Shown here piece after piece: positions 15,233 to 40,554 of a DNA stretch of 64,000 bases. Position numbers and translations under genes: made by a program. Source of the stretch: Planctomycetota bacterium (GTDB taxonomy: Bacteria > Planctomycetota > JAJSAM01 > JAJVHW01); the NCBI GenBank assembly GCA_965248445.1, contig CBDFJG010000001.1, positions 160,001-224,000 of the forward strand, written 5' to 3'. Each line of letters begins with the position of its first letter. The stretch's first letter is position 1. The notes below the pieces were generated by a model. The model had not been told where the DNA came from. It made no database searches and was given only the letters and a program-made list of their open reading frames with translations.

Positions 15233-16147
15233 GTGGGAGAAGAACGGGTCTGCGCGCTCTGTCAGACGGTCAACGTGGCCGGTACGCAGCTCTGCATCGC
15301 CTGCGGATCGTCGTTCGCAGCCTCGCCGCCGTCGGTGGAGACCGCCGGCGAGGAGGACCTCGACAGCGCGGCCCGCCAGGCAACCGTGATCGAGGGCGCT
15401 GTGCCGGGAGGCGGGGTCGCGAAGCGAGCGGCCGCGGTCGTGGCGACCGCGGCCGAGGCCGCGCGACCGCAGTCACCGCCGGAGACCGAGCACGACCCCG
15501 TCGGTGCGCCAACGACGACCAAGTTCACAGCGCGGCTGCTGCTCCCGGACGGGGACCGGCGCAGTCTCGAACTCACCGACGCGACCCAGCTCCTCGGCTC
15601 CGGTCTCGACGACCTCGGCGTGACGGGCGACCCGCGCATCGGTTCCGGAGAAGCGACGCTCACGGTCGAGGACGGCGATCTGTACCTGACGCCGAAGCCG
15701 GATGCGCGCGGCATCTACCGACGGCTGCGCGGCGAAGAGACGCTATCGCCCGGAGACGTCGTTCTGATGGGTGACATCGCGGCCCGTTACGAGCCGCTCG
15801 AACCCTTGGCTCCCATCGACGACGGGCAGCAAGTGCTCGGCGGCGGCGCGAACTCGCCCGTCGGCCGGCTCGTGTTCCTGCGTCGGGACGGCACCGACGG
15901 ACCGGTGCACGACTTGCCCGCGGGCAAGACGATCATCGGAAGGACCGACGGCCATCTCAACTTCCCACACGACGGACGGCTCTCGCGCCGGCACGCGCGC
16001 TTCTTCGGGTCGGAGCGCGGAGTCACGATCGAGGACCTGGGGAGTCGCAACGGCACGTACTTGCGGCTATGGAGACGAGAGCGCCTGGACATCGGGGACG
16101 CGCTCCGCGTCGGGTCGGCCGGCCTGCAGGTGAAGTCCCGCAGCTGA
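15233..16147 (+). CDS. Zinc-ribbon + tandem FHA-domain protein
   Basis: CALC...CIACG ribbon; degenerate first FHA; canonical second FHA (IIGR...LSRRH...DLGSRNGT). TTGCTT-N18-GATAAT lies just upstream of GTG 15233. Confidence 0.85.
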   Translation: MGEERVCALCQTVNVAGTQLCIACGSSFAASPPSVETAGEEDLDSAARQATVIEGAVPGGGVAKRAAAVVATAAEAARPQSPPETEHDPVGAPTTTKFTARLLLPDGDRRSLELTDATQLLGSGLDDLGVTGDPRIGSGEATLTVEDGDLYLTPKPDARGIYRRLRGEETLSPGDVVLMGDIAARYEPLEPLAPIDDGQQVLGGGANSPVGRLVFLRRDGTDGPVHDLPAGKTIIGRTDGHLNFPHDGRLSRRHARFFGSERGVTIEDLGSRNGTYLRLWRRERLDIGDALRVGSAGLQVKSRS

Positions 16148-16188
16148 TCCGCCGACTGGCGGCTCGCCGCGGAGGGGGGAGAAAGCGC

Positions 16189-17970
16189 ATGCAAGCGACG
16201 CGGATGACGCGTTCGCGGTGCGTGGCGCTCGCAACGCTCGCACTCGTGCTGGGCTCCCTCGTGCTCCCCGTCACGGATCGCGAGGCGGCGGCCGTTGGAC
16301 CGCCGCTCACGACCGCCGACGTGGAGACACTGGTCTCGCGCTGTGTGACGTTCGCGCGACGCGCATCCAAGCGGCCTCTCTCGATCGCGGTCGTGGACAC
16401 CGAGGGCAACTCGCTCGGCGTGTTCCACATGACCGGGAGCAGCGGCTGCCGCGCCATCGCGCTGTCCAAGGCCGGCACGGGCGCGTACTTCAGCAGCGAC
16501 TTCGGGTCATTCACGACCCGCACGGCGGCGTTCATCATCCAGGACCACTTCCCGCCGGGGCTGCGATTCGCTCCGGGCGGGCCCCTCTATGGGGTGCAGT
16601 TCTCGAGCCTCGCCGCGAGTGACACGAACGCGATCTACTACCCGACGCCGCAGTCGCTGCCGTTGATGGAGGACTGCGACGGACTGCCGGAGATCGCGCA
16701 GGCGCGTGTGCGCGGAGACCTGGGCGGGATCGGCATCTACAAGGACGGCAAGCGAGTCGGTGGGCTCGGCGTCGACGACGGCAGCCGGAACCGCACCGTG
16801 ACGATTCCGCCGATCGCGATCACGGACCCGACGAAGGGGCATCGGATCACGTATCGCAAGCTCGAACGCGGCCGTCCGCTCGAGCGCGTCGTCATGGCCG
16901 CCGGCCGCGGCTTCCTTCCTGACCGCAAGCGACGGGCGACTCGAATCACGGTCGACGGCTTCCGGCTCACCTACAGAAAGCCGGCGAACCTCAAGAAGAA
17001 CGTCACGGCCCCGACGATCGTGCCCGGAGTCGATGGTGTCTGGGACACCGACTACCCGTTGCGCGACGCGGCGGTGCTGCCGTCGCGGTTCGTTCCGCTC
17101 ACCTTGGATCCCCCTGTCGGGTCCAGCGCGGAAGCGCAGCGCTTCCGCGGATCGCGTCCGGCCGCGTTCCCGATCCGCGCCAGCACCGACGGACTGCTCT
17201 CCGAGGCGGACGTGCGCCGCATCCTCTGGCAGGGAGCGCAGCGGGCGAACATCACGCGCGCCGCGATCCGCCGTCCGATCGGTCTCGCGATGCAGTGCTG
17301 GATCTCCGTCGTCGACACGAACGGCGAGGTGCTCGGCGTGTACCGCTCGCCGGACGCGACGCTGTTCTCCTACGACGTCAGCGTGCAGAAGGCGCGCACG
17401 ACCGTGCTCTTCTCGGACGAGAAGGTCGCGTGGAGCTGCCGGGCTCTTGGACAGCACGCCCAGCGCTTCTACCCCGCGGGTCAGCAGCAATCGGGCACCG
17501 GACCGATCTACCAGCTCCAGGACGGCCTGTCCGTAGGGCTCCTCACCGGATCGCTCGCCGTGGGCGGAAGCACGGACGCGCTGCTACGCAACGGCATCAC
17601 GATCTTCCCGGGCGGTGTACCGCTCTACCGCAACGGACAGGTGGTCGGCGGCGTCGGCGTCTCCGGCGACGGCGTGGATCAGGACGACCTCGTGGCGGAT
17701 TTCGCGTCCATCGGCCTGAGAGCGGCGCCGCCGATCCGCTGCGACCGAGCGGGTCCCCAAGCACTGAAGAACTCGCTGCTGCGCGCGCTGACACGGATCG
17801 AGGGCATCGTTCCCGCGGGTCCGCTGGCCGATCCTGTCGCAGAGACGGGCCTCCGGTTCTTGAAGGCGCGCATCCGCAACTCGCGCGGCCGCCTCGGGCG
17901 CATTCGGCTCACCGTCGGACCACCGTACGTGAAGCACCCCAGGCATCCGGGGCCCGTCACGATCCGATGA
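16189..17970 (+). CDS. Secreted heme-binding protein with two GlcG/HbpS-like domains
   Basis: Signal peptide; IAVVDTEG...ALSKAGTG and ISVVDTNG...QKARTT; C-terminal FPGGVPLYRNGQVVGGVGVSGDGVDQDD. Confidence 0.8.
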   Translation: MQATRMTRSRCVALATLALVLGSLVLPVTDREAAAVGPPLTTADVETLVSRCVTFARRASKRPLSIAVVDTEGNSLGVFHMTGSSGCRAIALSKAGTGAYFSSDFGSFTTRTAAFIIQDHFPPGLRFAPGGPLYGVQFSSLAASDTNAIYYPTPQSLPLMEDCDGLPEIAQARVRGDLGGIGIYKDGKRVGGLGVDDGSRNRTVTIPPIAITDPTKGHRITYRKLERGRPLERVVMAAGRGFLPDRKRRATRITVDGFRLTYRKPANLKKNVTAPTIVPGVDGVWDTDYPLRDAAVLPSRFVPLTLDPPVGSSAEAQRFRGSRPAAFPIRASTDGLLSEADVRRILWQGAQRANITRAAIRRPIGLAMQCWISVVDTNGEVLGVYRSPDATLFSYDVSVQKARTTVLFSDEKVAWSCRALGQHAQRFYPAGQQQSGTGPIYQLQDGLSVGLLTGSLAVGGSTDALLRNGITIFPGGVPLYRNGQVVGGVGVSGDGVDQDDLVADFASIGLRAAPPIRCDRAGPQALKNSLLRALTRIEGIVPAGPLADPVAETGLRFLKARIRNSRGRLGRIRLTVGPPYVKHPRHPGPVTIR

Positions 17971-19901
17971 GAACGCGGTGCGCCGCCTCCACTGTCGTCG
18001 TGGGGCTCGCTCTCGCCGCCTGCAGGGTCGTGCCGGTGGACGACAACCGCGCGCCGATGCCGTTCCGCATCGAGAGCGTGCTCGACGACTACGCCCGCCA
18101 GAACCCGGACGGCGCGGCGCCGCTCGCTCCCCCTACCCCCACAACCGCCCGGGCGACAACCCCGGACGGCCGCGCGGACGCGGACACGGCGCAGCGCCCC
18201 GCGGTGCGAGAGCAACTCGAATACGGACCGCTCGGGTACGCACGACCCGGCGATGCACCCGCGACGCGAACGCCCCGCGATCTCTTCGAGAACGAGTCGA
18301 CGCGGCCCGATCGGTGGCGGGTCGGCATGCCCGCATGGGAGCGCGGCTCGAAGTCCGACTCGCCGTACGACCAGGGTTCGTGGTGGGACCCCTACCACCA
18401 GAACGTCCTGAAGGGCGACTACCCGCTGCCGGGTACGCAGAACACGTTCATGCTGCTCGAGGCCACGTCGCTCAGCCTCGCCGAGTCGCGCAAGGTGCCG
18501 ACGCCGACGAGCGTGTTCCCGCGCGGCGCGAACGATGCTGCGTTCTTCGGGAAGCCACACCAGACGCTCCTCGCGGAGACGGTTCAGGTGACGCTCGACC
18601 TGTTCCAAGGTGAGACGGCCTTCAAGCCCGTCGACTGGCGCCTGCTGGTGCGGGGCGCGTTCAACTGGAACCACGCTACGGCCCGGGAGAACGTGGCGCT
18701 GTTCGCGGATCCGGCGCGCGGCGGACGACGCACGGATCGTCACGCGGCGTTGCAACAGGCCTTCGTGGAGACGACGATCGCCTCCGTCAGCGACAAGTAC
18801 GACGTCATCCAGGCTCGCCTGGGCACGCAGCAGTTCAACAGCGACTTCAAGGGCTTCCTGTTCCGTGACGAAGCGCTCGGGGCGCGTCTGTTCGGCAGCC
18901 TCGATGACAACCGGTGGCTGTGGAACGCCGCGTACTTCCGTCGCTGGGACAAGGACACGAACAGCGGCCTGAACACATTCGACTCGATCAAGCAGGACAT
19001 CTTCCTCGTCAACCTGTACCGCCAGGACGTGCTGCAGATGCTCCTGCCGCGCTCCGAGAGTAAGGAGTGGTCGAAGGGGCTCACCGCCCAGCTCTCGTAC
19101 CACCACTTCAGCGACGACGAGTCCGTGCACTACGACGAGAACGACTTCCTGGTGCGCCCGCGAGCCGTCGGCACCGTCGCGCCGAGCCGGCGCTCGATCG
19201 ACTACGTCGGGTTCAACATGGACGGTCACGTGGACCGCCTGAACATCACGTCTTCGCTGTACCACGCTTCGGGCAACGCGACTCTCGATGAGATCGCCGG
19301 CCGCGAGGTCGATGTCGACGCGATGATGGCTGCACTCGAGCTGTCCGTCGACGTCGACTGGATGCGCTTCCGCGTGTTCGGGTTCTACCAGCAGGGCGAT
19401 GAGGACCCGTTCGACGGCGACGGCGAAGGGTTCGACGCGATCTTCGATGCGCCGGTGTTCGCGGGTGGCGAGTTCTCGTTCTGGAACCGGAACACGATTC
19501 GTCTGACCGGGAGCGGAGTCGGTCTGATGCAGCGGTTCAGCCTGCTCAACTCCCTCCGCAGCAGCAAGGACCAGGGGGCGCCGTCCTACGTCAACCCGGG
19601 GCTGATCCTCGGAGGAGTCGGGTACGACGCTCAGCTGACCCCGCACATCAAGCTGATCACCAACGCGTCCTACCTGCGCTTCGACCACACGAATTCGATC
19701 CAGTACGTCCTGAACCAGGACTCCATCGGCAGTGAGATCGGCTACGACCTCTCTGCCGGTGTGGTCTGGCGTCCCTTGCTCACCGACAACGTGATCGTCA
19801 AGGGCGGCGTCAGTGCGCTCGTCCCCGGTACCGGTTTCCGCGACGTGTTCACGGCGGACACGCTCTACGCCGGCTTCCTGGAGGTCATCCTCACGTGGTG
19901 A
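17967..19901 (+). CDS. Putative outer-membrane beta-barrel (lipo)protein
   Basis: ATGA overlap; lipobox LALAAC; aromatic-rich amphipathic beta-strands; ends YAGFLEVILTW with a terminal aromatic residue. Confidence 0.7.
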   Translation: MRTRCAASTVVVGLALAACRVVPVDDNRAPMPFRIESVLDDYARQNPDGAAPLAPPTPTTARATTPDGRADADTAQRPAVREQLEYGPLGYARPGDAPATRTPRDLFENESTRPDRWRVGMPAWERGSKSDSPYDQGSWWDPYHQNVLKGDYPLPGTQNTFMLLEATSLSLAESRKVPTPTSVFPRGANDAAFFGKPHQTLLAETVQVTLDLFQGETAFKPVDWRLLVRGAFNWNHATARENVALFADPARGGRRTDRHAALQQAFVETTIASVSDKYDVIQARLGTQQFNSDFKGFLFRDEALGARLFGSLDDNRWLWNAAYFRRWDKDTNSGLNTFDSIKQDIFLVNLYRQDVLQMLLPRSESKEWSKGLTAQLSYHHFSDDESVHYDENDFLVRPRAVGTVAPSRRSIDYVGFNMDGHVDRLNITSSLYHASGNATLDEIAGREVDVDAMMAALELSVDVDWMRFRVFGFYQQGDEDPFDGDGEGFDAIFDAPVFAGGEFSFWNRNTIRLTGSGVGLMQRFSLLNSLRSSKDQGAPSYVNPGLILGGVGYDAQLTPHIKLITNASYLRFDHTNSIQYVLNQDSIGSEIGYDLSAGVVWRPLLTDNVIVKGGVSALVPGTGFRDVFTADTLYAGFLEVILTW

Positions 19902-23635: not shown

Positions 23636-23745
23636 CTCCTCATCGCACGAGGCTCGCGCATTCCGTCGAGCACGCGGACCAGCGGGGGCCTGAATTCGCC
23701 GGGAACCGTATAGTGACGCTCCGCGTCCCGTACGTGGGAGGAAGC

Positions 23746-25311: not shown

Positions 25312-25318
25312 CGAGAGC

Positions 25319-26893: not shown

Positions 26894-26933
26894 ACGGCTC
26901 CGCGGACGCGCTCCGTTGCTCCGATCTCGTCTG

Positions 26934-27857: not shown

Positions 27858-27916
27858 ACGAATCTTCCGACGTCTCGACGATCCCATGCCCATTCAGTCT
27901 AGCCAGATCGGCTGTC

Positions 27917-28408: not shown

Positions 28409-28428
28409 GGGCTCTGTTCGCCCGGCGG

Positions 28429-28740
28429 TTAGTTGGGGCCGCCGTCCTTACCGGGCGCGGTCGACTCGTCGCACTCTTCCCACTCGATCGAGCAATCGCT
28501 CGGCCCGTCACACTCGGCAGCTTCGGAGCACTCGGCCGCTTCGGAGCACTCGGAGGCCGCTTCGCCGATCGCTTCCGCAGCGACGTCGCCGATCACGCCG
28601 TCCGTCGCGACGTCGAGATCGAGAGTGCAGTCGGTGCACTCACTCTGCTTCACCTGCACGGAGACCGTGGGCTTGTCGAACAGCTCACACTCGGTGAGGG
28701 CGAGACACGAGAATACGGCGGCGAGGATGAACGAACGCAT
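28429..28740 (-). CDS. Small exported acidic Cys-rich peptide
   Basis: AGGAG RBS; hydrophobic N-terminus; 103 aa with 9 Cys; ECSEAA tandem repeat of 18-bp units. Confidence 0.65.
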   Translation of the reverse strand: MRSFILAAVFSCLALTECELFDKPTVSVQVKQSECTDCTLDLDVATDGVIGDVAAEAIGEAASECSEAAECSEAAECDGPSDCSIEWEECDESTAPGKDGGPN

Positions 28741-28832
28741 GGGCACTCCTGTAGCGGTGGTGGTCTGTTGGCGAGAGGCGCGCCGGTATCCGGGCGCCGC
28801 TCCGCGGGAGCATATCACCCGCGCGCTCGCTG

Positions 28833-29612
28833 TCACCCCTCCTGGCGGGGGTAGCGCTTGCGAGCCTCACGTAGCTGGGAAAGCCCGAACTCCGCGTCGT
28901 CCTTCTTCTCGGCGTCCTCGGACATCCGCTCGAACGCCGAGCAGGCTGCCTCGAAGCGGCTCGCGCTGCCGCCCTCGCCGAGCACGTCCTCGGAGATCCC
29001 CAGATAGCCCTCGCCGAGCGCCGTGGCGAAGTCCTCGTCATTGGGGACCTCTCGCTCCTCCCGCTCGGTCGCGGCCGCGCGGGCCTGCTCCAGCGACAGC
29101 GCGAACGCCTCCCGCGACCCCGAGAGATCCCCCAGAGACAAGCGGTGCATACCGAGCGCCCAGTTCGCCATGCTCTTCGGACCGGGTCCCTTCTCGAGCT
29201 CATCCCTCCAGCGAACGCAGTCCTCGGCCGCGCGCAGTCCCGCCTCGAGGTGGCGGCGCTCGCGCGGGAAGGGATCATCCGGCCAGCAGTCGGCCAGAGA
29301 CGCGGAGAGGTTGTAGGAGAGGACGTTCGCGAAGTCCTTGCGGCGGGCCGCGACCTCGGCATCGACCTCGTCGGACGCCTCGCGCAGTCCCTCGCGGATG
29401 CCGGAGCCGGCGATTGCGATCAGAGCGTCGAGGTTCTTGCCCTCCCACTCGTTGTGGGCGAACGCAGACGCCGCGAACAGGTAGAGCTTGCGGCGCTTGA
29501 GGAGGTCCTCGTGGGCCTCGATGTGCGCGACGACCGTGTCGGTGCCGTCGCTCTCCATCAGTGCCTTGAGCTCGTCCCAGCGGTCGTAGGGAAACTCGGT
29601 CTTGTCGGGCAT
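28833..29612 (-). CDS. Hypothetical all-helical (TPR-like) protein
   Basis: 259-aa ORF with TPR-like WALG...GD...FALSLE helices; GACAAT 6 nt before the ATG. Confidence 0.7.
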   Translation of the reverse strand: MPDKTEFPYDRWDELKALMESDGTDTVVAHIEAHEDLLKRRKLYLFAASAFAHNEWEGKNLDALIAIAGSGIREGLREASDEVDAEVAARRKDFANVLSYNLSASLADCWPDDPFPRERRHLEAGLRAAEDCVRWRDELEKGPGPKSMANWALGMHRLSLGDLSGSREAFALSLEQARAAATEREEREVPNDEDFATALGEGYLGISEDVLGEGGSASRFEAACSAFERMSEDAEKKDDAEFGLSQLREARKRYPRQEG

Positions 29613-29635
29613 GGGTGGATTGTCTCAGGGACCGG

Positions 29636-31672
29636 TCATCGATGGAAGCGCCGGAGAGCGTGGCACTGCACGCACGCGGCGTGGTCGTAGGCCGGCCACA
29701 GCACGCTGGTGACCCGATCGGCTTCATCGACCGCCGCCTTGGTGTGGCAGTCTCCGCACGGCACGTCGGCGTGCCCGGCACTCGTGTGTCCGAAGCCCGG
29801 CAGGGCCGCCGTCGTCTTCCGTGCCGCCTTCGACCGTTCGAAGGGGCCCAGCTCGCTGTAGACGAAGAGCAAGCGCCCGTCCTTCCCACGGTTGCCCTCG
29901 AACTCGCGGTCCACGTGGCAGAGCACGCATCTGCCGGCCCCGACGTTCGCGTGGCGGGTGTGACACGCGGTGCAGTCGCGCGTTCCGGGTCGGAACGAGA
30001 CGCGCCCCGTGTCCGCCTCCGGCACGTGGCAGGACAGACAGCCGGACAGCAGCTTCTCGCGCTCGGCGAGCGAGCGTCGCGCGCCGGTCATCGCATCCGT
30101 CGGATCGACCGTGTGCAGGCTGTGGAACATGTCCACCACTGTCCGCGTGCCGTTGCCCGGGAGCGGACGCGGGTCGCCTCCCGAGTGGCACTCGCCGCAC
30201 GACGACGTATCGACGATCTCCACGCCGGCCAACGACTCCGACTTCGCGACAGCGGGGTGGCAGGCGACGCACTGCTCGGAGAAGACGAGACCGGTGCCCG
30301 GCGACGCCACGCCCTTCAGGTGATGGTCGTGGCGGAACGCGAGTTCCACCGGCGTGTCAGTGCGGCGGTCCGGAGTGATGTCGCGCACATGACACGTCCG
30401 ACACTCGTCGTTGCTCATGTCATGCCGTCGCGGCGGCACGGACCACATGCGGCCCGTCGCGGGTAGATCCACGGAGCGCAGATCGACGCCGACGTGATCC
30501 GGCGGCCCGGACCGCGCGTGACAGTCGGCGCACGCCGAGCCGTTGTCATCGCGCCCGTGAACGGGAACGGCCCAGTCAGCGTGACACTCGAGACACCCTT
30601 CGTAGTCAACAATCTTGAAGTCGGACCCCGCGGGGTCGCTGCGTAGATCGATGACCCGCGCCGCGTGACACGCCGAGCATTCGACGGGGAACGCACCGTC
30701 CGGCGCAGCCGCGGGTCCGCGACGTACTCGCGATCGCTGCTCCGCGATGCGGTGTTCCCGGTGGGAGAAGCCGTCCACGACGAGAGCGCGCGTGCGCGGT
30801 TCGCCCGCTCGGTCCCGCGCCGACCGTTCACCGGAGGCGCCTGGCTCGAGGACGCCGTGACAGCCGAGGCAGAACTCGCTCCAGCCGTCTTCGCCAGGGG
30901 CATCGCGTACCGGGATCAGGTCGGCATTCGCGCCGCGGTGGTCCTCGTGGCACTCGTTGCACGGGGTGTCGGCGGCGCGCCCGAACGGATGGAACTGCAC
31001 GTCGTCGTATCCCTCGTGGCAGGCAGCGCACTTGGGCGTGTAGTCGTCGGCGAGGGGATCGTGGCAGTCCGCGCACGATGCGGGCCCCTGCGCGTGCGCG
31101 CCGATCCGATGGTGCCACGCGAGCTCGCCCCGCGACTGCCACTCGGTGTCGATCAGGAACGGGACCGATGCGAATGCGCCGAGACCGAGCGCGCACGCGA
31201 TCAGAACGGAGCAACGGAGCACGGGGGAGCGTCCCCAGCGGTGCTCCTGGGGTCCCGACTCGACCAGGCGGAACGGCCGCGGCGGCTTCGCCTTCCGGAC
31301 AAGGGCATCGACGGCGCTGGATAGGTGCTGCTCGTTCGTCGTGACGGTGCACACGCCCTCTCCGACGTCCACGTCGATCTCGATCAGCGTGTGCCCCACC
31401 TGCACCACGGCGTTCTCCGGGACGCTCGTGCGCCCGTCGACCGCGCGGCCGTCGACGTAGACCCCCGTGAACTCATCGAGCGTCTCGACAGAGACGGAGG
31501 CGCCATCGAACACGAGGGCCGCGGCCTGCTGCGCGACCATGCGATCCGTCACGTAGATGTCGGCGAGCGGACGCGAACCGACGAGCAGCCGTCCACGCTC
31601 GACCGATTCGTCCTGGCGGGCGCGGTTCGGCCGCCCCTTCATCTTCCACTTGAGGACGAAGCGCGGCGTCAC
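29636..31672 (-). CDS. FHA-like domain + TM + 15-heme cytochrome c3-type protein
   Basis: GTG 31672 overlaps the upstream TGA; N-terminal degenerate FHA fold; one TM (VLIACALGLGAFASVPFLI); 15 CxxCH motifs counted, with FxHxxH distal-ligand motifs. Confidence 0.85.
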   Translation of the reverse strand: MTPRFVLKWKMKGRPNRARQDESVERGRLLVGSRPLADIYVTDRMVAQQAAALVFDGASVSVETLDEFTGVYVDGRAVDGRTSVPENAVVQVGHTLIEIDVDVGEGVCTVTTNEQHLSSAVDALVRKAKPPRPFRLVESGPQEHRWGRSPVLRCSVLIACALGLGAFASVPFLIDTEWQSRGELAWHHRIGAHAQGPASCADCHDPLADDYTPKCAACHEGYDDVQFHPFGRAADTPCNECHEDHRGANADLIPVRDAPGEDGWSEFCLGCHGVLEPGASGERSARDRAGEPRTRALVVDGFSHREHRIAEQRSRVRRGPAAAPDGAFPVECSACHAARVIDLRSDPAGSDFKIVDYEGCLECHADWAVPVHGRDDNGSACADCHARSGPPDHVGVDLRSVDLPATGRMWSVPPRRHDMSNDECRTCHVRDITPDRRTDTPVELAFRHDHHLKGVASPGTGLVFSEQCVACHPAVAKSESLAGVEIVDTSSCGECHSGGDPRPLPGNGTRTVVDMFHSLHTVDPTDAMTGARRSLAEREKLLSGCLSCHVPEADTGRVSFRPGTRDCTACHTRHANVGAGRCVLCHVDREFEGNRGKDGRLLFVYSELGPFERSKAARKTTAALPGFGHTSAGHADVPCGDCHTKAAVDEADRVTSVLWPAYDHAACVQCHALRRFHR

Positions 31673-33461
31673 TGCGATCCCAGCAGGTGATCGGGATCGA
31701 TGCGTTCGATCGCGCCGCACGGGCAGTTGTAGATGCACGCCATATCCGCCCGGCCGGCGCACATGTCGCACTTCACCGCGAGAGCCTTCGGCAGCTTCTC
31801 GACCTTGGCTTTCGGTTCCCCCTCGATCTTGCGCGGCTGCGGAGGCGACGCCGGCCGCTTGCGCAATCCGATGGTCCGGATCAGGCTCTCGAACACGGAC
31901 GGTTTCGCGACGGTGGCCGTGACGGCGACGCCAGTCTCGTCGAGTAGCGACTGCATGTGGATCGTGCCGTACGGGCAAGCGGGTTCGCACAGCGTGCATC
32001 CGGTGCACGCGTCGGCGTCGATCTGCACCTGCCCCTGGCGATCACGCGAATCGCACCGAACTTGCACGCCAGCATGCAGTCGGGGACTTTGCAGTTGTAG
32101 CAAGACGAAGTGAGCAGCAGGTCGCCGTAGCGAATCCCCCGTTTGCCGATCCGCGGAATGCGATCGTCGTGCGCCTCGATGCAGCCCGTCACGCACATGT
32201 TGCAGTGCGTGCACTTGCTCATGTCGATCACGAGCGCATCACCCGCCTTGATGACCTCGTGCTCGGTGCCGATCTCGGTCGCGCGCTCGCGCGCCTTCGC
32301 GTCGTCGGGACTTGGGTTCTCCGTCTCGATCAACTGCCGCACCCGCGCGAGGACCGTGGCCTTTACCTCCGGGTGGGCTTCGAGGAGCGCCAGGAACGGC
32401 TCGCGCGGGATGCGCACCAGATCCATGCGATCCACGGCCTCGACGGCCGAACCGCGCGGCGTGTCTCCGAGCAGCGCCAGCTCACCGAAGAACGAGTTCT
32501 CGCAGAGCCACGCGACGATTTCCTCGTCGTCCCCGGTCGTGCGAATCACACGCGCGTGACCCGTGCGAACGAGGAAGAACGCGTCACAGGGCGCTCCCTG
32601 CTCGACGACGGCCTCGCCCTTCTCCGCCACGATCAGCTCAGCGACGCGTCCGATCTCGCGCAGTACGCGGCGAGACAGTCCGCGGAACAGCGCTACCGAG
32701 CCGAGGTGGTTCTCCAGAGCGCGCTCGCGATAGGCGTCGTCGATACGCGTCTTGAACGCGGTGCTCTTTCGATCGCCGTAGCACTTCATGAACACGTGCC
32801 GCGGGAGTTGGAGCACGAGAGCCTCGCCCTCGGCGAGGACCGTTGCGTTGCGAGGCGCGTGCGACATGCAACTCATCTCGCCGAACCAGTTCCCCGAACT
32901 CAGCGTGCCGAGGTAGTTGCGGTCGCCAGCCTCGGCCTTGTAGACGCCGACGGTCCCGTCGAGCAGGACGAAGAACTCCGAGGTGTACTCCCCCTCCCGG
33001 CAGATCTCAGCGCGCGACGAGAACGCGCGGAACTGCCCTTCCGCCGCGACGGCACGAACCATGCCCGGCGTCAGCCCGCCGAAGACGTCGAGCGCCGCGA
33101 GGTGGGCCTCCTGCGATCCCTCCGCGAACGTCGCGGGCTCCGGGGCACCTGCGGCCGCGGGTGGCACCGGCTGCCCCGACGGCTGCGGCAGGCCCGGCGG
33201 TTTCGGAGTGCCCGGCGGTTTGGGCGGACCGGGTGGCGTCGGCGCACCGGGTGAGCTCGGCGGCCCCGGCGGCACTGGGAGCTTCGGGGGTTTCGGCGCG
33301 CCGGACGGCGGCGGCGGTGCCGGGGGCGGCGGCGCGCCTGGAGGCTTCGGTGGACCGGGAGGCGTCGGTGGACCGGGAGGCTTCGGCGGACCGGGAGGCT
33401 TCGGAGGACCGGGGGGACCCGCGCTTGCGTCGTCGGGGCGATCGGCGTCGTCTGCGCCCAC
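31669..33461 (-). CDS. Pro-rich + 2x cNMP-binding + 4x[4Fe-4S] ferredoxin-type protein (frameshift near 32046)
   Basis: FGEMS...PRNAT and FGELA...PRGSA phosphate-binding cassettes; CTHCNMCVTGC and CYNC...CMLAC, then (other frame) CTGCTLCEPACP and KCDMC...CIYNCP. One added C restores GAIRRDRQG. Confidence 0.85.
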
Positions 33462-33462
33462 G

Positions 33463-34521
33463 TCAGTACCAAATCACCTGGAACACGTGCACTGCGATGA
33501 CGCCGAAGAGCAGCAGCGAGAGCGGGATGTGAATCCACTTCCACACGACGAGCATGCGATCCAACCGGACGGCCGGTGCGGTCACCTCCCGCAGGCGGTC
33601 ACGGGACGCTGCCATGACCGCGAGATCGCGAATCAAGGAAGCAGACTCCGGATGGGCCGGAGCGACCTCATCGAGGACGACCGCATTGCGCCGCGCGATG
33701 GCCGCCTGCGAACGCGCCGTCTTGCGCAGCGGAGCCAGTGCTGTCCGCAGCGGTTCGTCGAGCGTGGCGAGGATGCCGGTCACGCACTGGTGATACGTCG
33801 CCCGCGCGACGCCCGCTTCCTCATACGGAATGCCGGGATCGGCGCGTGAGAGCGCCGGAGGCACGAAGCGGTAGGCCACCGCACCGAACACGCCGGAGAT
33901 CAGGATCAGCGACGAGAGTGTGACCAGCGCCCAGCCGACGTGGTGCCAGACCATCAGGTCCGCGTGCAGCCACACCCCAAGGCACGCGGTGACACCGACG
34001 CCCATGTGCGCCTCGAGCCATGCCTCGAGACGTCCCAACGGCTCGCGACGCACGAGCCGTACGACGCGCACCGTTCGGTCCTGCACGCGCAACGCGGAGA
34101 GCGTCGCCCGCTGGGCGCGATCCACACCGTGATGCACCAGCACCTTGTGGGCCGCCTCGAGGACGCGCTCGTCGCTGGCATAGGCACCGGCGAGGACCTT
34201 GCGATTGACGTCCTGCACGCCCGCCCACGCCGCATCGGTCTGCTCGGGTGTGCGCCGGCCCATGTCACGGACCACGCGCAGCTTGATGCACCACTTTCGC
34301 GCGCTGAAGAGCGCCGCGACGATGAACAGTGCGAGCAGGACGTTGCCCGACCAGAGAAACCAGGTTCGCTCGTCGCCGGGTGATCCGCGAGCCGGCAGAG
34401 CCACGAGAGCCCAGCCGGTGGCGAACGGGATCATCGTCAGTGCCAGCCAGAGCCAAGCGCGCGGTCGCCCGAGGAACCGCACACCGAAGCGGCGGCCGGA
34501 CAGAGTGATCGCGTCGCTCAC
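33463..34521 (-). CDS. Five-TM membrane protein, ferric-reductase-like di-heme cytochrome b candidate
   Basis: GTG 34521 overlaps the upstream TGA; two TM helices each carry H-x13-H (HMGVGVTACLGVWLH; HIPLSLLLFGVIAVH). Confidence 0.7.
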   Translation of the reverse strand: MSDAITLSGRRFGVRFLGRPRAWLWLALTMIPFATGWALVALPARGSPGDERTWFLWSGNVLLALFIVAALFSARKWCIKLRVVRDMGRRTPEQTDAAWAGVQDVNRKVLAGAYASDERVLEAAHKVLVHHGVDRAQRATLSALRVQDRTVRVVRLVRREPLGRLEAWLEAHMGVGVTACLGVWLHADLMVWHHVGWALVTLSSLILISGVFGAVAYRFVPPALSRADPGIPYEEAGVARATYHQCVTGILATLDEPLRTALAPLRKTARSQAAIARRNAVVLDEVAPAHPESASLIRDLAVMAASRDRLREVTAPAVRLDRMLVVWKWIHIPLSLLLFGVIAVHVFQVIWY

Positions 34522-36677
34522 TCCCCGAGGTTCCTCAGGTAGCCGCGTGGCTCGCGCCGGTGGCACGTCATGCACGTCCGACCCTGGCCGCCCGGGTCTC
34601 CCTCCGGCTTGTCGATGCGCGGGTCGTTGAACCATGCGTCGGCGAACTGCGGATCGTCGTGGATGCTGCTCGTGACCTTCGCGCGCGTGATCCTTTCCTG
34701 GTACGCCGACCCCTCCTGGTACGACGACCCCTGCTGGTACGACGACCCCGAGGCGGACGAGGACCGCTCGTGACACGCAGCGCACGCGCCCGTGCGGTCG
34801 TGCCACTGCGTTCCCGGCAAGAGGTCGATGTGGACGCGGGTGCGCGGCTGATGCGCCGGAGCCGCGTCCCCGACCGGCCACGCACCGCCGTGGCAATGGG
34901 CACAGCGCGTCGCCTCCTCGCGCGACGCCGCGACGCCGGTGCGCCCGAACTTCTGCGTGTCGGCCGGATCGTGCCCGTGGCAACGCGTGCAGTCCGCAAC
35001 GTCCGCCGGGACGTGGTATCCGGTGTCACCGCCGGGCTCGTGGCAGGTGGTGCAGGGGATGCCGTCCGGCGCGCCGATGTACGTCTTGGCCGAGGCGTGC
35101 GATCGGTGGTCGAACTGTGGGACGACGGCCGAAACCCGCCGCACGCCGAGTTCCCCGGGCAGCGCTCCCGCGTGGCAGTCGAGGCATCCACGCGGATCGA
35201 TGCCGGCCCGAGCTGGGCCGACACGTTCCACGTGGGTGTCGAAGCGGGAGAGATCCTCGCTCCACGATGTCGTGGCTGCCGTCGCGTGGCAACCGAGGCA
35301 CTCCGCTGAGGTCGGGAGATCGCTGACGTGCGGTGCGTGGTCGAACGTGCGCCCGGTAAGGCGCGACGGCACGGTCTCGTTGTCCGCGACGTGACAGTCG
35401 CTGCACGTCTTCCCGTCCGGCTGGGAGTCGTCGACGAGCACCGCACCGTTCGTCGTCACTCCGGGATGCGCATGCACGCCGAACGCGACGGCTTCGACGT
35501 CGTCCCGTTCGACCCGGGCGGTCGCGACGGCGAGGGCGCCGTCCGCCTCGAGATCTCCCGAGTGGCACTTGAAGCAGGCCCACGCGCCGACTCCGTGATT
35601 CGCCACACTCCATGTAGCGTGACACGGCGCGCAGGCGCGGTACTCGATCAGCTCTGCGCGGCCCACCGGCTCGGTCGAATTGCTGCCCGAACCTCTGCCG
35701 GAACCGCTGCGCAGGGGGAAGAGCGAGGCAGCCGCCGCATCCGTCTCCGGGAAGTGGCAAGTCCGGCATCCCGCTGTCACGGCGCCGCTCGTCTCCACGG
35801 TCCCGGCCGGCACAAGATGCGCACTGTGGGGAAAGCGGTCGAACGCGACGTATGGCAACTTGCTCGTCCGGGCGGGCGTCGCCACGCCCGCTAGCGCCGT
35901 ACCCGCCGCGTCGGCAACGTGGCAGGCGGAGCAGCGATCGCGGGTGTCGGTCGCGGGGTCGTAGTCCCAGATGGTCTGACTTGCGCGGATGCCCGCATGG
36001 CAGTCGTCGCACTCCGCCGCCGCGCCGCCGTGATCAGCGTGAAGGAACGGGCGCACGCCCGCGGCCGTCGAGCGCGCTGCCCGGTAGCGCTGTGGGAGGA
36101 TCGACGTCGCGCCCTGGTGGCACGCGGCGCAGCGGCGGCCGTCTCCCGTGACGCCGTCCTGCGTGACCAGCCCCCCGGCGGGTTCATGCTCCGCGTGGCA
36201 GTCCGCGCACGTTCGCGTCCCCAACGCACCCCCCGGCGAGCCGCCGTGACCGCGCGGCCCGAGCCCGCCCGCGGGCACCGAGAACTCGACCCAGTCGTAC
36301 TCGACCTTCATCCGGTGGCAGTCGAAGCAGGTGATCGACTCGTCGCGCAGGTGGGATGCGTGCGGGAATGGCGTGCGCGGACCGTGCGGTGCTGCTCGCT
36401 CGACGACCAGGTGCGCGTCGTCCTGATGGCACTGCGCACACCCACTCAGGTGCGTCTCCTCGCCCCCCGTGTAGTCGTGACACACGCGGCACTCGGAGTC
36501 GTCCGGATCGCCGCGGTCGGCCGCGAACGCTAGCCCGCGGTCGACCGTGGCCGCCGACAGGTGCGGAGCGTGCGGGAAGCTGTACGGGCCCTCCGCGCGC
36601 AGCGTGATCACCGGCACCGTGACCACGACCGCCGCCGCTACGAGAAGAGCGCCGGTAACCGTGATGCGAAGCTTCAT
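34518..36677 (-). CDS. Secreted 18-heme cytochrome c3-type protein
   Basis: ATGA overlap; signal peptide; 18 CxxCH motifs counted; repeated FPHxxH/FDHxxH motifs. Confidence 0.9.
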   Translation of the reverse strand: MKLRITVTGALLVAAAVVVTVPVITLRAEGPYSFPHAPHLSAATVDRGLAFAADRGDPDDSECRVCHDYTGGEETHLSGCAQCHQDDAHLVVERAAPHGPRTPFPHASHLRDESITCFDCHRMKVEYDWVEFSVPAGGLGPRGHGGSPGGALGTRTCADCHAEHEPAGGLVTQDGVTGDGRRCAACHQGATSILPQRYRAARSTAAGVRPFLHADHGGAAAECDDCHAGIRASQTIWDYDPATDTRDRCSACHVADAAGTALAGVATPARTSKLPYVAFDRFPHSAHLVPAGTVETSGAVTAGCRTCHFPETDAAAASLFPLRSGSGRGSGSNSTEPVGRAELIEYRACAPCHATWSVANHGVGAWACFKCHSGDLEADGALAVATARVERDDVEAVAFGVHAHPGVTTNGAVLVDDSQPDGKTCSDCHVADNETVPSRLTGRTFDHAPHVSDLPTSAECLGCHATAATTSWSEDLSRFDTHVERVGPARAGIDPRGCLDCHAGALPGELGVRRVSAVVPQFDHRSHASAKTYIGAPDGIPCTTCHEPGGDTGYHVPADVADCTRCHGHDPADTQKFGRTGVAASREEATRCAHCHGGAWPVGDAAPAHQPRTRVHIDLLPGTQWHDRTGACAACHERSSSASGSSYQQGSSYQEGSAYQERITRAKVTSSIHDDPQFADAWFNDPRIDKPEGDPGGQGRTCMTCHRREPRGYLRNLGE

Positions 36678-37684
36678 CGCGTGACGAGGTACACCACGGC
36701 CGCGATCGCTACCGTCAGCAGAATCAGGACGATGCCGAGCACCCACTTGGACGAACCGACCGCGCGCGCGGACGGCGCGACGGCGGCGATGGCGTCCCGC
36801 TGGCGATGGAGTTCGCACCATTGCGCGGGCGTCAGGAGGCCCCGCTCGACGAGCAGGTCACCGACGTCGCGCTGCTCGTCGCGATGGGCCGCCAGCACCT
36901 CGTCACCCTGATGGACGGTCGCCCGGCCCTGCGCCACGACGTGGCGCACGAGCGCGCCCGCCAGGGGATCCTCCGTGCGGCCGCCGGAAGGTGGCCGCGT
37001 CACGAAGAGGCAGTCCACCGTCCCGAAAGTCACCGGCGTGTGAGGCGGCAGCGTCGTCCAGCCGGAGGTCCGGCTGCCCGCCACGAACGTACCGTTCGAC
37101 GAGTCGAGGTCACGGACCTCGAATCTGCCCTCGGCATACCGAATAGCCGCGTGGCGGCCGGAAATCGACGCGTGCGACACGGCGATCTGGCAGGTCTTTG
37201 CGTCGCGGCCGACGGTCATCTCCATCTCGGTGAGCGGGATGGATCTCCTGTCGTGCTCGGCGGCGATCACGAGGCGGGCCTCGGCCGCCTTGAACCGCGC
37301 GATGGCAACCAGCCCGGTGTGGCCCGCCGCGGGCCCGCCGAGGATTGTCTCTCCTGTCGAGCTGTGGAACTCGGATGCCACGCCATCTGCGGCGTGTGCA
37401 ACGACCTCGACGACCGTTCGCCCGAGCGACAGTTTGTTGCCGCGCGCGAATGCCACGGGATGGCCGGGGCGCAGGCGCTCAGAACCGTCGAGCACGGTCC
37501 CGTTCGTCGAGTCGAGGTCCTCGGCTTCGAGCCCTCGCCCGCGGGGGCGGATCGCGAGGTGCCGTGAGGAGAGCTCCTCGTCGTCGATGGCGACGTCCGC
37601 ACCACGCGAGCGCCCGATCACGACCTCTTGATCGATCTCGCGCTCGTCGCGAACAACCCCCTCAACCGAGATCCGGATGCGCAT
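36674..37684 (-). CDS. Tandem FHA-domain protein with C-terminal TM anchor
   Basis: VIGRS...LSSRH...DLDSTNGT and TVGRD...ISGRH...DLDSSNGT; C-terminal hydrophobic helix. Confidence 0.88.
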   Translation of the reverse strand: MRIRISVEGVVRDEREIDQEVVIGRSRGADVAIDDEELSSRHLAIRPRGRGLEAEDLDSTNGTVLDGSERLRPGHPVAFARGNKLSLGRTVVEVVAHAADGVASEFHSSTGETILGGPAAGHTGLVAIARFKAAEARLVIAAEHDRRSIPLTEMEMTVGRDAKTCQIAVSHASISGRHAAIRYAEGRFEVRDLDSSNGTFVAGSRTSGWTTLPPHTPVTFGTVDCLFVTRPPSGGRTEDPLAGALVRHVVAQGRATVHQGDEVLAAHRDEQRDVGDLLVERGLLTPAQWCELHRQRDAIAAVAPSARAVGSSKWVLGIVLILLTVAIAAVVYLVTR

Positions 37685-37832: not shown

Positions 37833-39758
37833 GTGGCGAAGGCGAGACTGACGATCACAGGCGATCAGGCCGAAGCTCGTAACATCGAGTTCGACGGTGA
37901 GGTCGTGATCGGCCGCTCCCCGCGAGCCAACATCCAAATACTCGGAGACCTCGTCTCGAGACAGCATGCCCGGTTCGCGTTCCGCGAGGGCAAGTGGCGG
38001 TTCGAGGATCTCGGCAGCCGGAACGGATCGCTCGTCAACGGGGAGAGCGCGACCGAAGCGATCCTCCGCACCGGCGACGTGGTCATGATCGGCTACGGAC
38101 GCATCGAGTTCGAAGCGCTCGGCGATCCCGGCACCACGTCGATCTCCGTCGACCTCGTGGACGCCGAGGCCTCCCTCGACAGAGCGCTCGTGGCTGAGGA
38201 GGACGACGGGTCGACGAACGCGACCGTCGCACTGTCGTACCAGAACCTCGTCGCCATCAACGAGCGGCTGTCGACGATCGCCCGCATCAGTAGCAACCTG
38301 GCAACCGTTCTCGACCGCCAGGCCCTCCTCGGGCAAGTGCTCGACACGCTCTTCGACCTGTTCGAGCAGCTCGACCGAAGCGCCGTCGTGGTGCGCGACG
38401 ATCTCGGCTCCTTCCGGGTGGACGCAACCCGGCAACGCAGCTCGGCCGACGATTCGGTGATGCGGATCTCGACGTCGCTGATCCAGTTCGTGCAGCGCGA
38501 AGGCAAGGCGGTTCTTTCAGAGGATACGGCGCACGACGACCGGTTCTCCGGCAAGGACAGCATCGTCGCTGCGGGCGGCCGCTCGATCATGTGCGCCCCG
38601 CTCCTCGCAAAGGATGAGTTCCTCGGTGTCATCTACCTCGACACGGCGTCGCTCAGCCAGCCGTTCGCGTTCCAGGACCTGAACCTGCTGCAAGGGATCG
38701 CCGGCCCGATGGCGATCTTCCTCAAGAACGCGGAGCTGATCTCCCAGATCGAGGACGAAACCCGCATTCGGACGAGCCTCTCCCGCTACCTCTCGCCCGA
38801 CGTCGTCTCACAGACCGGCGACGGAACCCTCGACGCGAACCTCGGCGGAGAGATGGTCACAGGAACCGTGATGTTCAGTGACATCGTCGGGTTCACGGCG
38901 ATGGCGGAACGGCTGCCGCCGGTCGAGGTCGTGGACCGCCTGAACCGGTACTTCACGTCGATGCTGCACGCGATCTTCGGCTGGGAGGGAACCGTCGACA
39001 AGTTCGGTGGCGACGCGATCCTCGCGGTGTGGGGAGCACCGCTCGCCAACGCCGATCACGCACGCATGGCGACCGCGGCAGCACTCGACATGCAGGCGCG
39101 CCTGTTCGATCTGAACCTCGCATTGCACGAAGCCGGTGAGCCCAGCATCCGCATGGCGCTCGGCCTGAACTCGGGCAAGTTCGTCGCCGGGAACATCGGG
39201 GGCGAGGACCGCATCGAGTGGACGATCATCGGTGACGCGGTCAACACGGCGCAGCGCGTCGAGGCGCAGGGATTCCCGGGCGGAGTTCTGGTCGAGGGGT
39301 CAACGTGGGACGGACTCGGCGACGACGCCGGCGCATACGCGTTCCCTGCGGTACGCGTGAAGAACCGCGACACACCCGTTCACGTGTTCAGCGTGCGCAC
39401 CCTCCGCGGCCCGCACGGTGTGACCGCAGCCATCCCCGTCATCGTCACCTGGGGCGACGAGGCCGGCGACGGCATGCTCAACGGCGCAGTCCTCGACGAT
39501 CGCGACATCGCCGGACTCCGCATCCACATGGGTGCCGAGCCGGCACTGGGGCCGATCACGGTCTCCGCGATCCTCCCCGAGGTACCCGAGGGGTTGTCGA
39601 TGGACGGCACCGTGACGCACGTCGATCCGCTACCCGGTTCGGAGACCGGGCGAATCGTCACGGTCGAGGTCGAGGAGATGGACGAGGAACTGGGCTGGCT
39701 GCTCAACGCAGAGGGCGCGCGCAACTCGAGCCGCACGCTCGGGGAGATCGGACGATGA
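37833..39758 (+). CDS. FHA-GAF-class III adenylate cyclase
   Basis: FHA (VIGRS, VSRQH, SRNGS); GAF (RSIMCAPL...GVIYLD); cyclase FSDIVGFT, DKFGGDA, WTIIGDAVNTAQRVE with K/T residues typical of ATP specificity. Confidence 0.92.
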   Translation: MAKARLTITGDQAEARNIEFDGEVVIGRSPRANIQILGDLVSRQHARFAFREGKWRFEDLGSRNGSLVNGESATEAILRTGDVVMIGYGRIEFEALGDPGTTSISVDLVDAEASLDRALVAEEDDGSTNATVALSYQNLVAINERLSTIARISSNLATVLDRQALLGQVLDTLFDLFEQLDRSAVVVRDDLGSFRVDATRQRSSADDSVMRISTSLIQFVQREGKAVLSEDTAHDDRFSGKDSIVAAGGRSIMCAPLLAKDEFLGVIYLDTASLSQPFAFQDLNLLQGIAGPMAIFLKNAELISQIEDETRIRTSLSRYLSPDVVSQTGDGTLDANLGGEMVTGTVMFSDIVGFTAMAERLPPVEVVDRLNRYFTSMLHAIFGWEGTVDKFGGDAILAVWGAPLANADHARMATAAALDMQARLFDLNLALHEAGEPSIRMALGLNSGKFVAGNIGGEDRIEWTIIGDAVNTAQRVEAQGFPGGVLVEGSTWDGLGDDAGAYAFPAVRVKNRDTPVHVFSVRTLRGPHGVTAAIPVIVTWGDEAGDGMLNGAVLDDRDIAGLRIHMGAEPALGPITVSAILPEVPEGLSMDGTVTHVDPLPGSETGRIVTVEVEEMDEELGWLLNAEGARNSSRTLGEIGR

Positions 39759-39795
39759 CCGCGGCGACCCGATCGTCGTGGCGCCGGACGGGCTG

Positions 39796-40554
39796 ATGCG
39801 GATCCGCGTCCTCGGCTGCAGCGGGGGCAGCGCCAAGGGCGCAGAGCCATCGTGCTATCTGTTCGAGCACGGGGTCTCCGTGGACGCCGGCGCGCTCGCC
39901 GCAACGCTCACACTCGAGGAACAGCGCGCGGTCACGGACGTCTTCGTGACGCACTCGCACTGGGATCACGTCCGCGACCTGCCGCTCACTACGATCAACC
40001 GGACGCCCGACACACCGACCCTGAACGTGCACGGACTGTCGCAGACGATCGAGGCACTTCGAACTCACCTCATGAACGACGTCATGTGGTTCCCCGCGTT
40101 CGACGTGCCGTCCGCCGACACGCCGTACGTGGCGCCGACCGTCATCGCACCTGGCGAGACCCGCGCCGTGAACCGGTACCGAGTGACCGCCGTGCCGATG
40201 CAGCACTCCGTGCCGGCGATCGGATACCTCCTCGATGACGGAACGGTCTCGGTGCTGATGTGTGCGGACACCGTCGGTGGCGGCGCCTGCCGCGACCTCC
40301 CCCGGGACGCGAGCCCCCTCGCCGCGGTCTTCATCGAGGCGTCCTTCCCGAACCGGATGCGCGCGTTCGCCGAGATGACCGGTCACCTCACACCCGAGAT
40401 GATGGCGGCCGAGTGCGCCCACCTGCCCGCCGACGTGAAGGTGTTCGCCACGCACATGAAGCCGGGGTTCGAGGCGGAGATCACGGCCGAGGTCGCCGCG
40501 CTGGACCGCCCCGGCGTGCGCCCAGCGGTGGGTGGTGAGGAACTGGTCTTCTGA
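39796..40554 (+). CDS. MBL-fold 3',5'-cyclic nucleotide phosphodiesterase (class II-like)
   Basis: MRIRVLGCSGG, VDAG, THSHWDH, HSVPAIGY, EASFPN, GHLTP, THMKP motifs; directly follows the cyclase. Confidence 0.85.
   Translation: MRIRVLGCSGGSAKGAEPSCYLFEHGVSVDAGALAATLTLEEQRAVTDVFVTHSHWDHVRDLPLTTINRTPDTPTLNVHGLSQTIEALRTHLMNDVMWFPAFDVPSADTPYVAPTVIAPGETRAVNRYRVTAVPMQHSVPAIGYLLDDGTVSVLMCADTVGGGACRDLPRDASPLAAVFIEASFPNRMRAFAEMTGHLTPEMMAAECAHLPADVKVFATHMKPGFEAEITAEVAALDRPGVRPAVGGEELVF

Follow-up and report, generated by a model that had tools for sequence, protein, structure and literature searches.

What task brings together an outer-membrane barrel, three multiheme c-type cytochromes, an iron-sulfur (FeS) protein with two cyclic nucleotide-binding (cNMP) domains and a neighboring adenylate cyclase? 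The genes lie in a 64,000-nt stretch (C1:160001-224000, hereafter the window) of the genome of a Planctomycetota bacterium, which spans 5.4 Mb in four contigs and is 92% complete. They form a plus-strand half, with the barrel and a decaheme lipoprotein that ends in an LVIVD propeller, and a minus-strand half, with a five-helix membrane protein, the cNMP-FeS protein and 15- and 18-heme cytochromes, next to divergent genes for the cyclase and a cyclic nucleotide phosphodiesterase (PDE) (Table 1). An earlier note, drawn from the sequence alone, had proposed that all of these form one uncharacterized trans-envelope electron conduit tied to signaling by cyclic AMP (cAMP) and by phosphothreonine (pThr). 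Our analyses show that the cluster is real, conserved across phyla and partly described before, and that its two halves are one system. As to function, we favor cAMP-gated export of reductant to a periplasmic decaheme coupled to a pore, a reading that we hold with evenly balanced confidence.

The unity of the two halves, which the earlier note had put forward, is borne out by synteny and by co-occurrence. Both halves are syntenic in six relatives of the same family (G001-G006), five of which carry the cyclase and PDE within the fetched stretch, and in a seventh (G007) the halves are on separate contigs. The same convergent layout, with both halves, a flavin domain fused into the cNMP2-FeS protein (WP_231568103.1) and a CHASE2 cyclase upstream, is seen on pMSHV of Sphingobium herbicidovorans. 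A GTDB scan for LVIVD loci, in which at least 582 of 596 candidate stretches were confirmed, left 80 loci (39 full-length) that span Acidobacteriota, Planctomycetota, Verrucomicrobiota, Bacteroidota/Ignavibacteria and others. The barrel is present in 67 of these loci, GlcG in 49 (34 of the 39 full-length), the membrane protein in 40 (41 including one truncated fusion), and the four-cluster FeS domain and the cNMP domains in 35 each. For 37 of 39 loci without a local copy the membrane protein is encoded elsewhere in the genome, which brings it to 78 of the 80 LVIVD genomes. In even samples of 251 Planctomycetota and 201 Acidobacteriota genomes the barrel version occurs in 36 and 23, respectively, and all of these encode the membrane protein (36/36 and 23/23), compared with 46 of 215 barrel-negative Planctomycetota and 5 of 20 barrel-negative Acidobacteriota tested; these counts come from membrane-protein and barrel profiles built partly with some of the sampled genomes, include kin that are not independent, and take in a related subfamily that the profile also matches. 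The membrane protein lies on the same contig within 20 kb of the barrel in 25/36 Planctomycetota and 13/21 Acidobacteriota, and on a different contig in the remainder. The dependence is one-way, as the inner module frequently occurs without this barrel. Fusions are also found, of the FeS protein to the membrane protein in 5 of the 80 loci and of a tetraheme cytochrome to the N terminus of the barrel in 3; where the locus maps seemed to show GlcG or the decaheme fused to the barrel, this proved to be an artifact of stop-to-stop reading frames. Many carriers are soil and water bacteria, and the barrel version also occurs in cultured Sphingobium.

The inner module centers on the membrane protein, modeled with five membrane helices (AF2 pLDDT 87.6), which harbors the motifs W168-H172-H186, W327-H331-H345 and SGVFG. 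Its four motif histidines are kept in 51, 50, 50 and 50 of 51 homologs and are invariant in a second comparison (43/43), and the protein is predicted to carry two b hemes. Fold comparison, at a level within the noise of helical proteins, aligns it with STEAP1 (Z 8.2, root-mean-square deviation [rmsd] 4.6, 156 residues aligned) and CybB 5oc0 (Z 8.5, rmsd 3.0, 129 aligned), and its Sphingobium homologs bear either PF01292 or, in UniRef, the name "Ferric reductase like transmembrane component." The two HX13H pairs are a likeness to NADPH oxidases (NOX) and ferric reductases, a link stated in the accessible part of PMC5566968. Like the barrel, the membrane protein gives no Pfam match (none at E 0.01, PF01794 included), and it lacks a fused FAD/NADPH dehydrogenase.

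What feeds this module is indicated by the partners of the FeS protein, whose four-cluster domain scores above the PF13247 cutoff in the intact gene of a relative (L011) and below it in the split gene of the window. Across the 80 loci, NuoEF is adjacent in 15, a NuoG-type N terminus is present in 13 and a flavin domain resembling thioredoxin reductase (TrxR) in 9, and at other loci the same slot is filled by a separate Pyr_redox-FHA protein or an FAD/NAD/2Fe-2S protein. Because unrelated modules of the NAD(P)H type recur in one slot, these data suggest that the FeS protein receives electrons from a cytoplasmic donor, of the NAD(P)H type in the relatives. The Pyr_redox-FHA query was unmatched in the source genome and gave short N-terminal matches in 2/5 relatives under a stricter first look. 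In the source family a Pro-rich tail with PTPP repeats fills the slot in place of a flavoprotein, and ferredoxin may therefore be the donor there. A 2-oxoacid:ferredoxin oxidoreductase, the sole close copy in the source genome, adjoins the PDE gene here and in four same-family relatives, an adjacency that is possibly plain family synteny; its alpha and beta genes lie with a class I aldolase (DeoC/LacD) at 40914-44887, downstream of the PDE. Among other arrangements of the input, a 1654-aa frame (L133:10011-14972) joins Pyr_redox, four FHA, Fer4, cNMP and four-cluster domains and lies beside a membrane protein that carries a five-heme fusion. Five loci (L127, L170-L173) hold related modules without cNMP domains, with Fer4-TrxR-like input and 13- to 26-heme cytochromes, and in L127 this input and the membrane protein form one fusion; a class III cyclase match is missing from two of these five genomes.

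On the periplasmic side, the 15- and 18-heme cytochromes have wire-like spacings of ~31 and ~36 aa per heme, close to the ~33 of MtrA-type wires (PMC5566968, accessible part), and counterparts of the latter with 17-18 hemes are present in five other families. The tetraheme relative, found in 37/80 sister loci, was not detected in the source genome.

Much of this inner module has a precedent in PCC4, a putative porin-cytochrome cluster reported in Planctomycetes by He et al. 2017, for which quinone-linked extracellular electron transfer was proposed, its function being predicted only (PMC5566968). According to the accessible part of that report, PCC4 shares with our cluster a five-transmembrane (TM) inner-membrane protein (IMP) with SGXXG and two WX3HX13H motifs, a pfam13247 FeS gene, periplasmic multihemes and a porin. 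However, the pfam13247 gene stands upstream of the gene for the IMP in PCC4 subgroup II and downstream of it here, the PCC4 trio of 4-, 5- and 10-heme cytochromes is not matched by the 10, 15 and 18 hemes of the cluster, and the LVIVD decaheme, GlcG and the FHA proteins are additions. The AlgE-like barrel gives no clear match to the protein presumed to be the porin at a PCC4-like locus, the best pairwise hit having E 0.008 over 39 aa. Since the 4/5/10-heme set is lacking and the barrel is apparently different, we regard the cluster as a relative of PCC4 and not as PCC4 proper, which is the better description of barrel-less relatives with 4, 5 and 10 hemes (L126, L134, L165-L168). A second precedent is the NHC cluster of Ferrigenium straubiae, in which an FHA-TM-nonaheme protein stands beside five-TM and [4Fe-4S] proteins and quinone is the proposed acceptor (bioRxiv 10.64898/2026.01.22.701106). 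The likeness is by architecture only (FHA-TM-multiheme, five-TM protein and [4Fe-4S] protein); the NHC cytochrome has nine hemes, and the accessible part of the preprint mentions no barrel, LVIVD, GlcG or cNMP domain. Thus, "uncharacterized," as the earlier note had it, is true of function only, because PCC4 and the NHC cluster are earlier descriptions of the inner module. The word "cyclic" does not occur in the main text of PMC5566968, and a literature search that left subscription journals mostly outside found no paper that links the parts of the cluster with cNMP domains, with cyclases, with GlcG or with input from NAD(P)H, and no tested function for the barrel version. New here, from sequence comparison, is that NAD(P)H modules (NuoEF/G, TrxR-like, FNR-like) appear to feed the FeS protein in relatives and that the cNMP arginine appears to track class III cyclase.

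That second finding bears on the cAMP input. PF00211 has a single match in the source genome, the FHA-GAF cyclase (70 bits, cutoff 21.9), which keeps the catalytic motifs FSDIVGFT, DKFGGD and TIIGDAVNTAQR (two Asp, Lys/Thr specificity, Asn/Arg), and both cNMP domains keep the FGE..R phosphate-binding cassette (FGEMSCMSHAPR and FGELALLGDTPR). The phosphate-binding Arg was compared in 93 collected cNMP proteins, of which all but four could be placed, with five read from the survey of the 80 loci. Modules with at least one such Arg come with a class III cyclase in 41/41 sampled Planctomycetota genomes, against a baseline of 172/251, the cyclase evidence for one genome (G226) being a single marginal match that is missing from the baseline search. 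Elsewhere, Arg-bearing modules are accompanied by a cyclase in 5/5 further relatives, in G075 and in 31/31 other records (including one duplicate genome and one plasmid). Both Arg residues are lost in nine modules, five of them from genomes without a cyclase even at relaxed thresholds (G098, G157, G178, G303, G071), so that the scored cyclase-less carriers have lost both in 5/5 cases. This co-loss is independent support for cAMP as the true ligand of the cNMP domains, and with it for the cAMP input that had been proposed, rather than a demonstration of gating. Effects of cAMP on bacterial electron transport are known to run through transcription factors. A cNMP pair within the electron path, with its binding residue lost where cyclases are missing, points instead to direct allosteric control.

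Adjacency of the cyclase is another matter. It holds in 7/7 same-family relatives and in 3/31 other barrel-positive Planctomycetota, and in 10/80 LVIVD loci (4/39 full-length) and 6/20 barrel-less PCC4-like loci, with the PDE in 4/80; we rejected it as a universal feature on these counts. The neighborhood comparison that the earlier note had called for therefore found the halves together, but cyclase and PDE linkage that is tight only in the source family and loose elsewhere. The neighboring cyclases also differ in architecture (FHA-GAF, CHASE2, other). In four planctomycete loci (L057, L065, L078, L082) the place of the barrel, directly upstream of the gene for the LVIVD decaheme, is taken by a cyclase gene.

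At the outer membrane, the barrel is modeled with 18 long strands (AF2 pLDDT 88); its best Foldseek match is AlgE (4b61, E 2e-15), OprD-type porins come next, and its Atlas neighbors are named "alginate export family." The decaheme, which has at least 8000 homologs, spends ~70 aa per heme, compared with 31-36 in the two wires, and has 15 conserved His outside CxxCH. This spacing and these histidines fit an enzyme, and the decaheme-LVIVD lipoprotein is the probable terminal enzyme of the chain. Its profile had no match among PDB sequences, and only unnamed multihemes were returned from the Atlas. A complex model of barrel residues 18-550 with decaheme residues 60-524 (an N-terminal part of 465 residues) scored 0.81, against 0.00 for the best control; the benchmark mark, reached by 116/157 solved and 2/215 mismatched pairs, applies roughly to this run, which used our own alignments. 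At least 35% of contacts agree between runs, with a partner pLDDT of at least 70. The confident interface pairs decaheme residues 245-264, a conserved acidic loop that lacks heme motifs, with strand ends and two long loops of the barrel, and these strand ends, read by hand, would face the periplasm. Collectively, the 18-strand AlgE-like barrel, the heme-free interface and the enzyme-like heme spacing lead us to prefer, to an MtrB-like sheath, a pore for solutes under which a reductase is docked. Relatives of the secreted GlcG/HbpS-like protein bind heme, and HbpS has a redox-sensing role. A second, distant decaheme in the source genome (L114:8157-11195, G000 C4) has the heme domain of the LVIVD protein at 23-26% identity and is common in the family and order.

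In the reading that we prefer, the chain would resemble a bacterial multi-subunit NADPH oxidase or ferric reductase. Cytoplasmic NAD(P)H or ferredoxin would reduce the four-cluster FeS protein, and the two cNMP domains directly before the clusters would open or close the electron path on binding cAMP. Two b hemes would then carry electrons over the inner membrane, and the 15- and 18-heme wires would pass them to the decaheme-propeller lipoprotein, which would hang at the periplasmic face of the 18-strand pore and reduce a small solute entering there. Chains with NOX or ferric reductase domains have NAD(P)H-type input and a ligand-binding domain (EF hands) placed to gate flow. The cluster likewise has both, but differs in being multi-subunit, with an FeS relay, a multiheme c output and cNMP domains in place of EF hands. 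Observed directly were the parts and their motifs, their co-occurrence, the partners of NAD(P)H type that relatives have and the Arg/cyclase co-loss, and the barrel fold and barrel-decaheme contact come from models; from these we infer cofactor binding, cAMP gating, electron direction and substrate. Genes of the PCC4 type are taken to mark iron oxidation, whereas inputs of the NAD(P)H type suggest that electrons run another way and serve another purpose. A bolder version, which we put forward tentatively and consider less probable, is a widespread, quinone-independent chain. In it, cAMP bound within the FeS subunit would directly turn on the export of electrons driven by NAD(P)H or ferredoxin, the recipient would be a decaheme-propeller enzyme of a new class that acts as the plug of its substrate pore, and pThr/FHA docking on the PTPP-repeat tail would recruit the donor in the source family. 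If this were true, PCC4 and NHC, now candidates for iron oxidation, would be recast as cAMP-regulated reductant exporters.

Several observations weigh against reductant export. The membrane-protein fold search returned nothing at E 0.001, and none of the input partners known from relatives was detected in the 92% complete source genome; its NuoEF/NuoG-like genes, considered as a dedicated input, were rejected, being parts of complex I and of a formate dehydrogenase of the molybdopterin kind. Four of the nine Arg-less modules sit in cyclase-bearing genomes (G119, G185, G306, G307), although in G119 the single cyclase adjoins a second, Arg-intact module. A further cyclase-less carrier (G217) has its cNMP gene outside the scored set, the Arg losses fall at ~4-5 separate places on a FastTree tree, three of which include cyclase-less genomes, and CYTH proteins are present in three cyclase-less genomes. 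Incompleteness of the genomes also limits this comparison. The docking covered the N-terminal 465 residues of the decaheme only, with the propeller half excluded. In addition, the published models of PCC4 (PMC5566968) and NHC (bioRxiv 10.64898/2026.01.22.701106), in their accessible parts, have quinone, instead of NAD(P)H, act at the step in the membrane. Finally, the cNMP2-[4Fe-4S]4 gene of the window switches frame near 32046, leaving two cluster motifs in each frame.

This frame change raises the possibility, compatible with the other readings and to our minds only slightly short of an even chance, that the source genome's own copy of the chain is inactive. The cNMP-FeS genes of relatives run in a continuous frame in 8/8, and one sample, sequenced in four runs, yields contigs with identical, gap-free letters at the frameshift. 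Our first guess, an assembly error, is unsupported and not established, since the contigs of all four runs carry the same letters, and the frame break may be real in the source population. Against inactivity, the remaining ten genes are intact, and the four runs are possibly the source of the assembly itself, so that a shared systematic error is conceivable; the lack of a homopolymer at the site speaks against a simple error of run length.

Could the barrel instead complete a true extracellular conduit, with hemes passing through or over it to minerals, humics or other cells? A porin with multihemes and a di-heme membrane protein is the pattern of porin-cytochrome clusters (PMC5566968, accessible part), and the wire-like spacing of the 15- and 18-heme proteins, the three tetraheme-barrel fusions and the modeled binding of the decaheme, for its N-terminal half, would all suit such a conduit. 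As in MtrCAB, PioAB and Uet, the barrel gene is coupled to a decaheme gene. However, barrels of the MtrCAB type (MtrB/UetC) have 26-28 strands and not the 18 of an AlgE/OprD-class barrel, the decaheme is a 1245-aa protein with a propeller, and its confident contact is a loop without heme motifs at strand ends read as periplasmic. Family models of MtrA/MtrC were missed as well (TIGR03508 22-28 bits for the 15- and 18-heme wires, cutoff 192; decaheme unmatched). Carriers include Sphingobium, which is not known to respire metals. We therefore rate the trans-envelope conduit of the earlier note as doubtful, and a conduit of this kind as unlikely: the barrel and decaheme do bind in the model, but through a heme-free contact on an 18-strand barrel. 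A conceptual parallel to the favored pore is the Geobacter ExtHIJKLMNOPQS cluster, whose small porin is proposed as a solute channel or an anchor for periplasmic multihemes; as described in the accessible part of that report, Ext has a Rieske/cytochrome b core and no cNMP, unlike our cluster (PMC5877670). Among NCBIfam models the decaheme comes nearest to ExtM (E 4.5e-27), at 95 bits against a cutoff of 800. Other candidates were set aside. The Verrucomicrobia porin-octaheme cluster, compared by its published description only, has eight hemes and at least 20 strands, which do not fit (PMC5615132, accessible part); the Uet cluster and bioanode porin-cytochrome clusters are different systems; and for Mo/NiFe enzymes with a four-cluster subunit and a b-type anchor, the catalytic subunit is absent from the window and from the recurring neighbor families of the loci.

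Somewhat less probable still is a chain that runs inward, in which a periplasmic substrate or Fe(II) is oxidized and electrons pass to quinone or uphill to NAD(P)+. Such a direction was proposed for PCC4 and NHC in iron oxidizers (PMC5566968; bioRxiv 10.64898/2026.01.22.701106), and the accessible part of the latter reports NHC expression in 4/4 conditions tested. Direction cannot be fixed from sequence, which leaves this reading some room. With a quinone end point, however, a cytoplasmic FeS protein and NAD(P)H-type partners in several unrelated forms would be superfluous. Electron transfer from c hemes to NAD(P)+ would be uphill.

The FHA proteins bring in the second signal of the earlier note, pThr. 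Six FHA-like domains occur in the cluster, and the GR/SxxH/NG motifs are kept in four: both of the tandem FHA-FHA protein (invariant or nearly so across 8 sequences), that of the cyclase and the second of the Zn-ribbon protein. The binding motifs are missing from the FHA of the 15-heme cytochrome (10/10 rows) and the first Zn-ribbon FHA. The source genome has 56 kinase matches, zero of them within the window, as the earlier note had observed for the window, and kinase and PP2C genes lie beside three distant loci. Control through pThr is plausible, though the FHA of the cytochrome itself is degenerate, and it lies outside the conserved core. The tandem protein (36674-37684) also has a weak MshEN-like cyclic di-GMP motif before its TM helix (NF053729 E 0.009, below cutoff), with an RxLG-like stretch kept in relatives. 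That the whole is mainly a sensor, its heme chain reporting the outside redox state to FHA, cNMP, cyclase and PDE with little electron flux, might be read from these six domains, the cyclase and PDE, the role of HbpS, the kinase and PP2C neighbors and the PTPP-repeat tail, but is quite improbable, as the FeS protein has no output domain, the redox core is kept where cyclase, Arg or FHA partners are lacking, some variants combine TrxR-like input with the absence of cNMP domains, and 43 c hemes would be costly for a sensor.

The gene content of the window agrees in most respects with what had been noted before, and all eleven genes of the cluster are where they had been placed (Table 1). The four plus-strand genes are present as described, the Zn-ribbon-FHA protein being a family-level accessory; CxxCH motifs number 10, 15 and 18 in the three cytochromes, 43 in all; and the cyclase and PDE, with matching Pfam domains, diverge from the minus-strand genes across 148 bp between the starts at 37684 and 37833. 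The Pfam scan of the window gives no molybdopterin or NiFe catalytic subunit. Stop/start overlaps (ATGA/GTGA) couple the GlcG-barrel-LVIVD, FHA2-18-heme-TM and FeS-15-heme genes. The minus-strand operon is accordingly coupled as claimed except that the TM and cNMP-FeS genes are separated by 1 nt and the cNMP2-[4Fe-4S]4 protein is spread over two frames. Scans of the window found no Rfam match, and promoter and terminator predictions no better than chance.

Table 1. Genes of the cluster, with positions in the window
Feature	Coordinates	Strand	Evidence
Zn-ribbon + degenerate FHA + intact FHA, predicted cytoplasmic	15233..16147	+	PF00498; motifs compared in 7-8 relatives; syntenic in relatives
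Secreted tandem GlcG/HbpS-like protein, putative heme binding	16189..17970	+	PF03928, two stretches
Outer-membrane barrel with lipoprotein signal, 18 strands, AlgE/OprD-like fold	17967..19901	+	AF2 model, Foldseek
Lipoprotein decaheme cytochrome, C-terminal LVIVD propeller, 1245 aa	19898..23635	+	10 CxxCH; Pfam LVIVD
Degenerate FHA (YscD-like) + one TM + 15-heme cytochrome	29636..31672	-	15 CxxCH; Pfam FHA
Pro-rich tail + cNMP domain pair + four-cluster FeS domain, with a frameshift near 32046	31669..33461	-	Pfam cNMP x2 + Fer4
Five-helix inner-membrane protein, two W-x3-H-x13-H + SGxxG, PCC4-type IMP, putative di-heme b	33463..34521	-	Motifs, AF2
Sec-exported 18-heme cytochrome	34518..36677	-	18 CxxCH
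FHA-FHA + weak MshEN-like stretch + C-terminal TM	36674..37684	-	Pfam FHA x2
FHA-GAF-class III adenylate cyclase	37833..39758	+	PF00211
MBL-fold class II-like cyclic nucleotide phosphodiesterase, THSHWDH motif	39796..40554	+	PF02112 45 bits (cutoff 23.7), PF12706

Between the halves, 23713-29612 is a variable insert of ~6 kb that holds two HEAT proteins, DUF501 and unknowns and is reduced in G004 to 1.2 kb and in G010 to 0.4 kb. The HEAT proteins (23713-26893) are tandem secreted Pro-rich HEAT-repeat paralogs that in parts are ~61-78% alike; C3 carries a third copy. Farther out, the window contains a PEP-CTERM protein (10911-11849), an MbnB/TglH/ChrH (DUF692) enzyme that modifies ribosomally synthesized and post-translationally modified peptides (46540-47850, 332 bits), an integrase-core gene of an insertion sequence (51944-53194) and the start of an ATP synthase operon (61640-63516).

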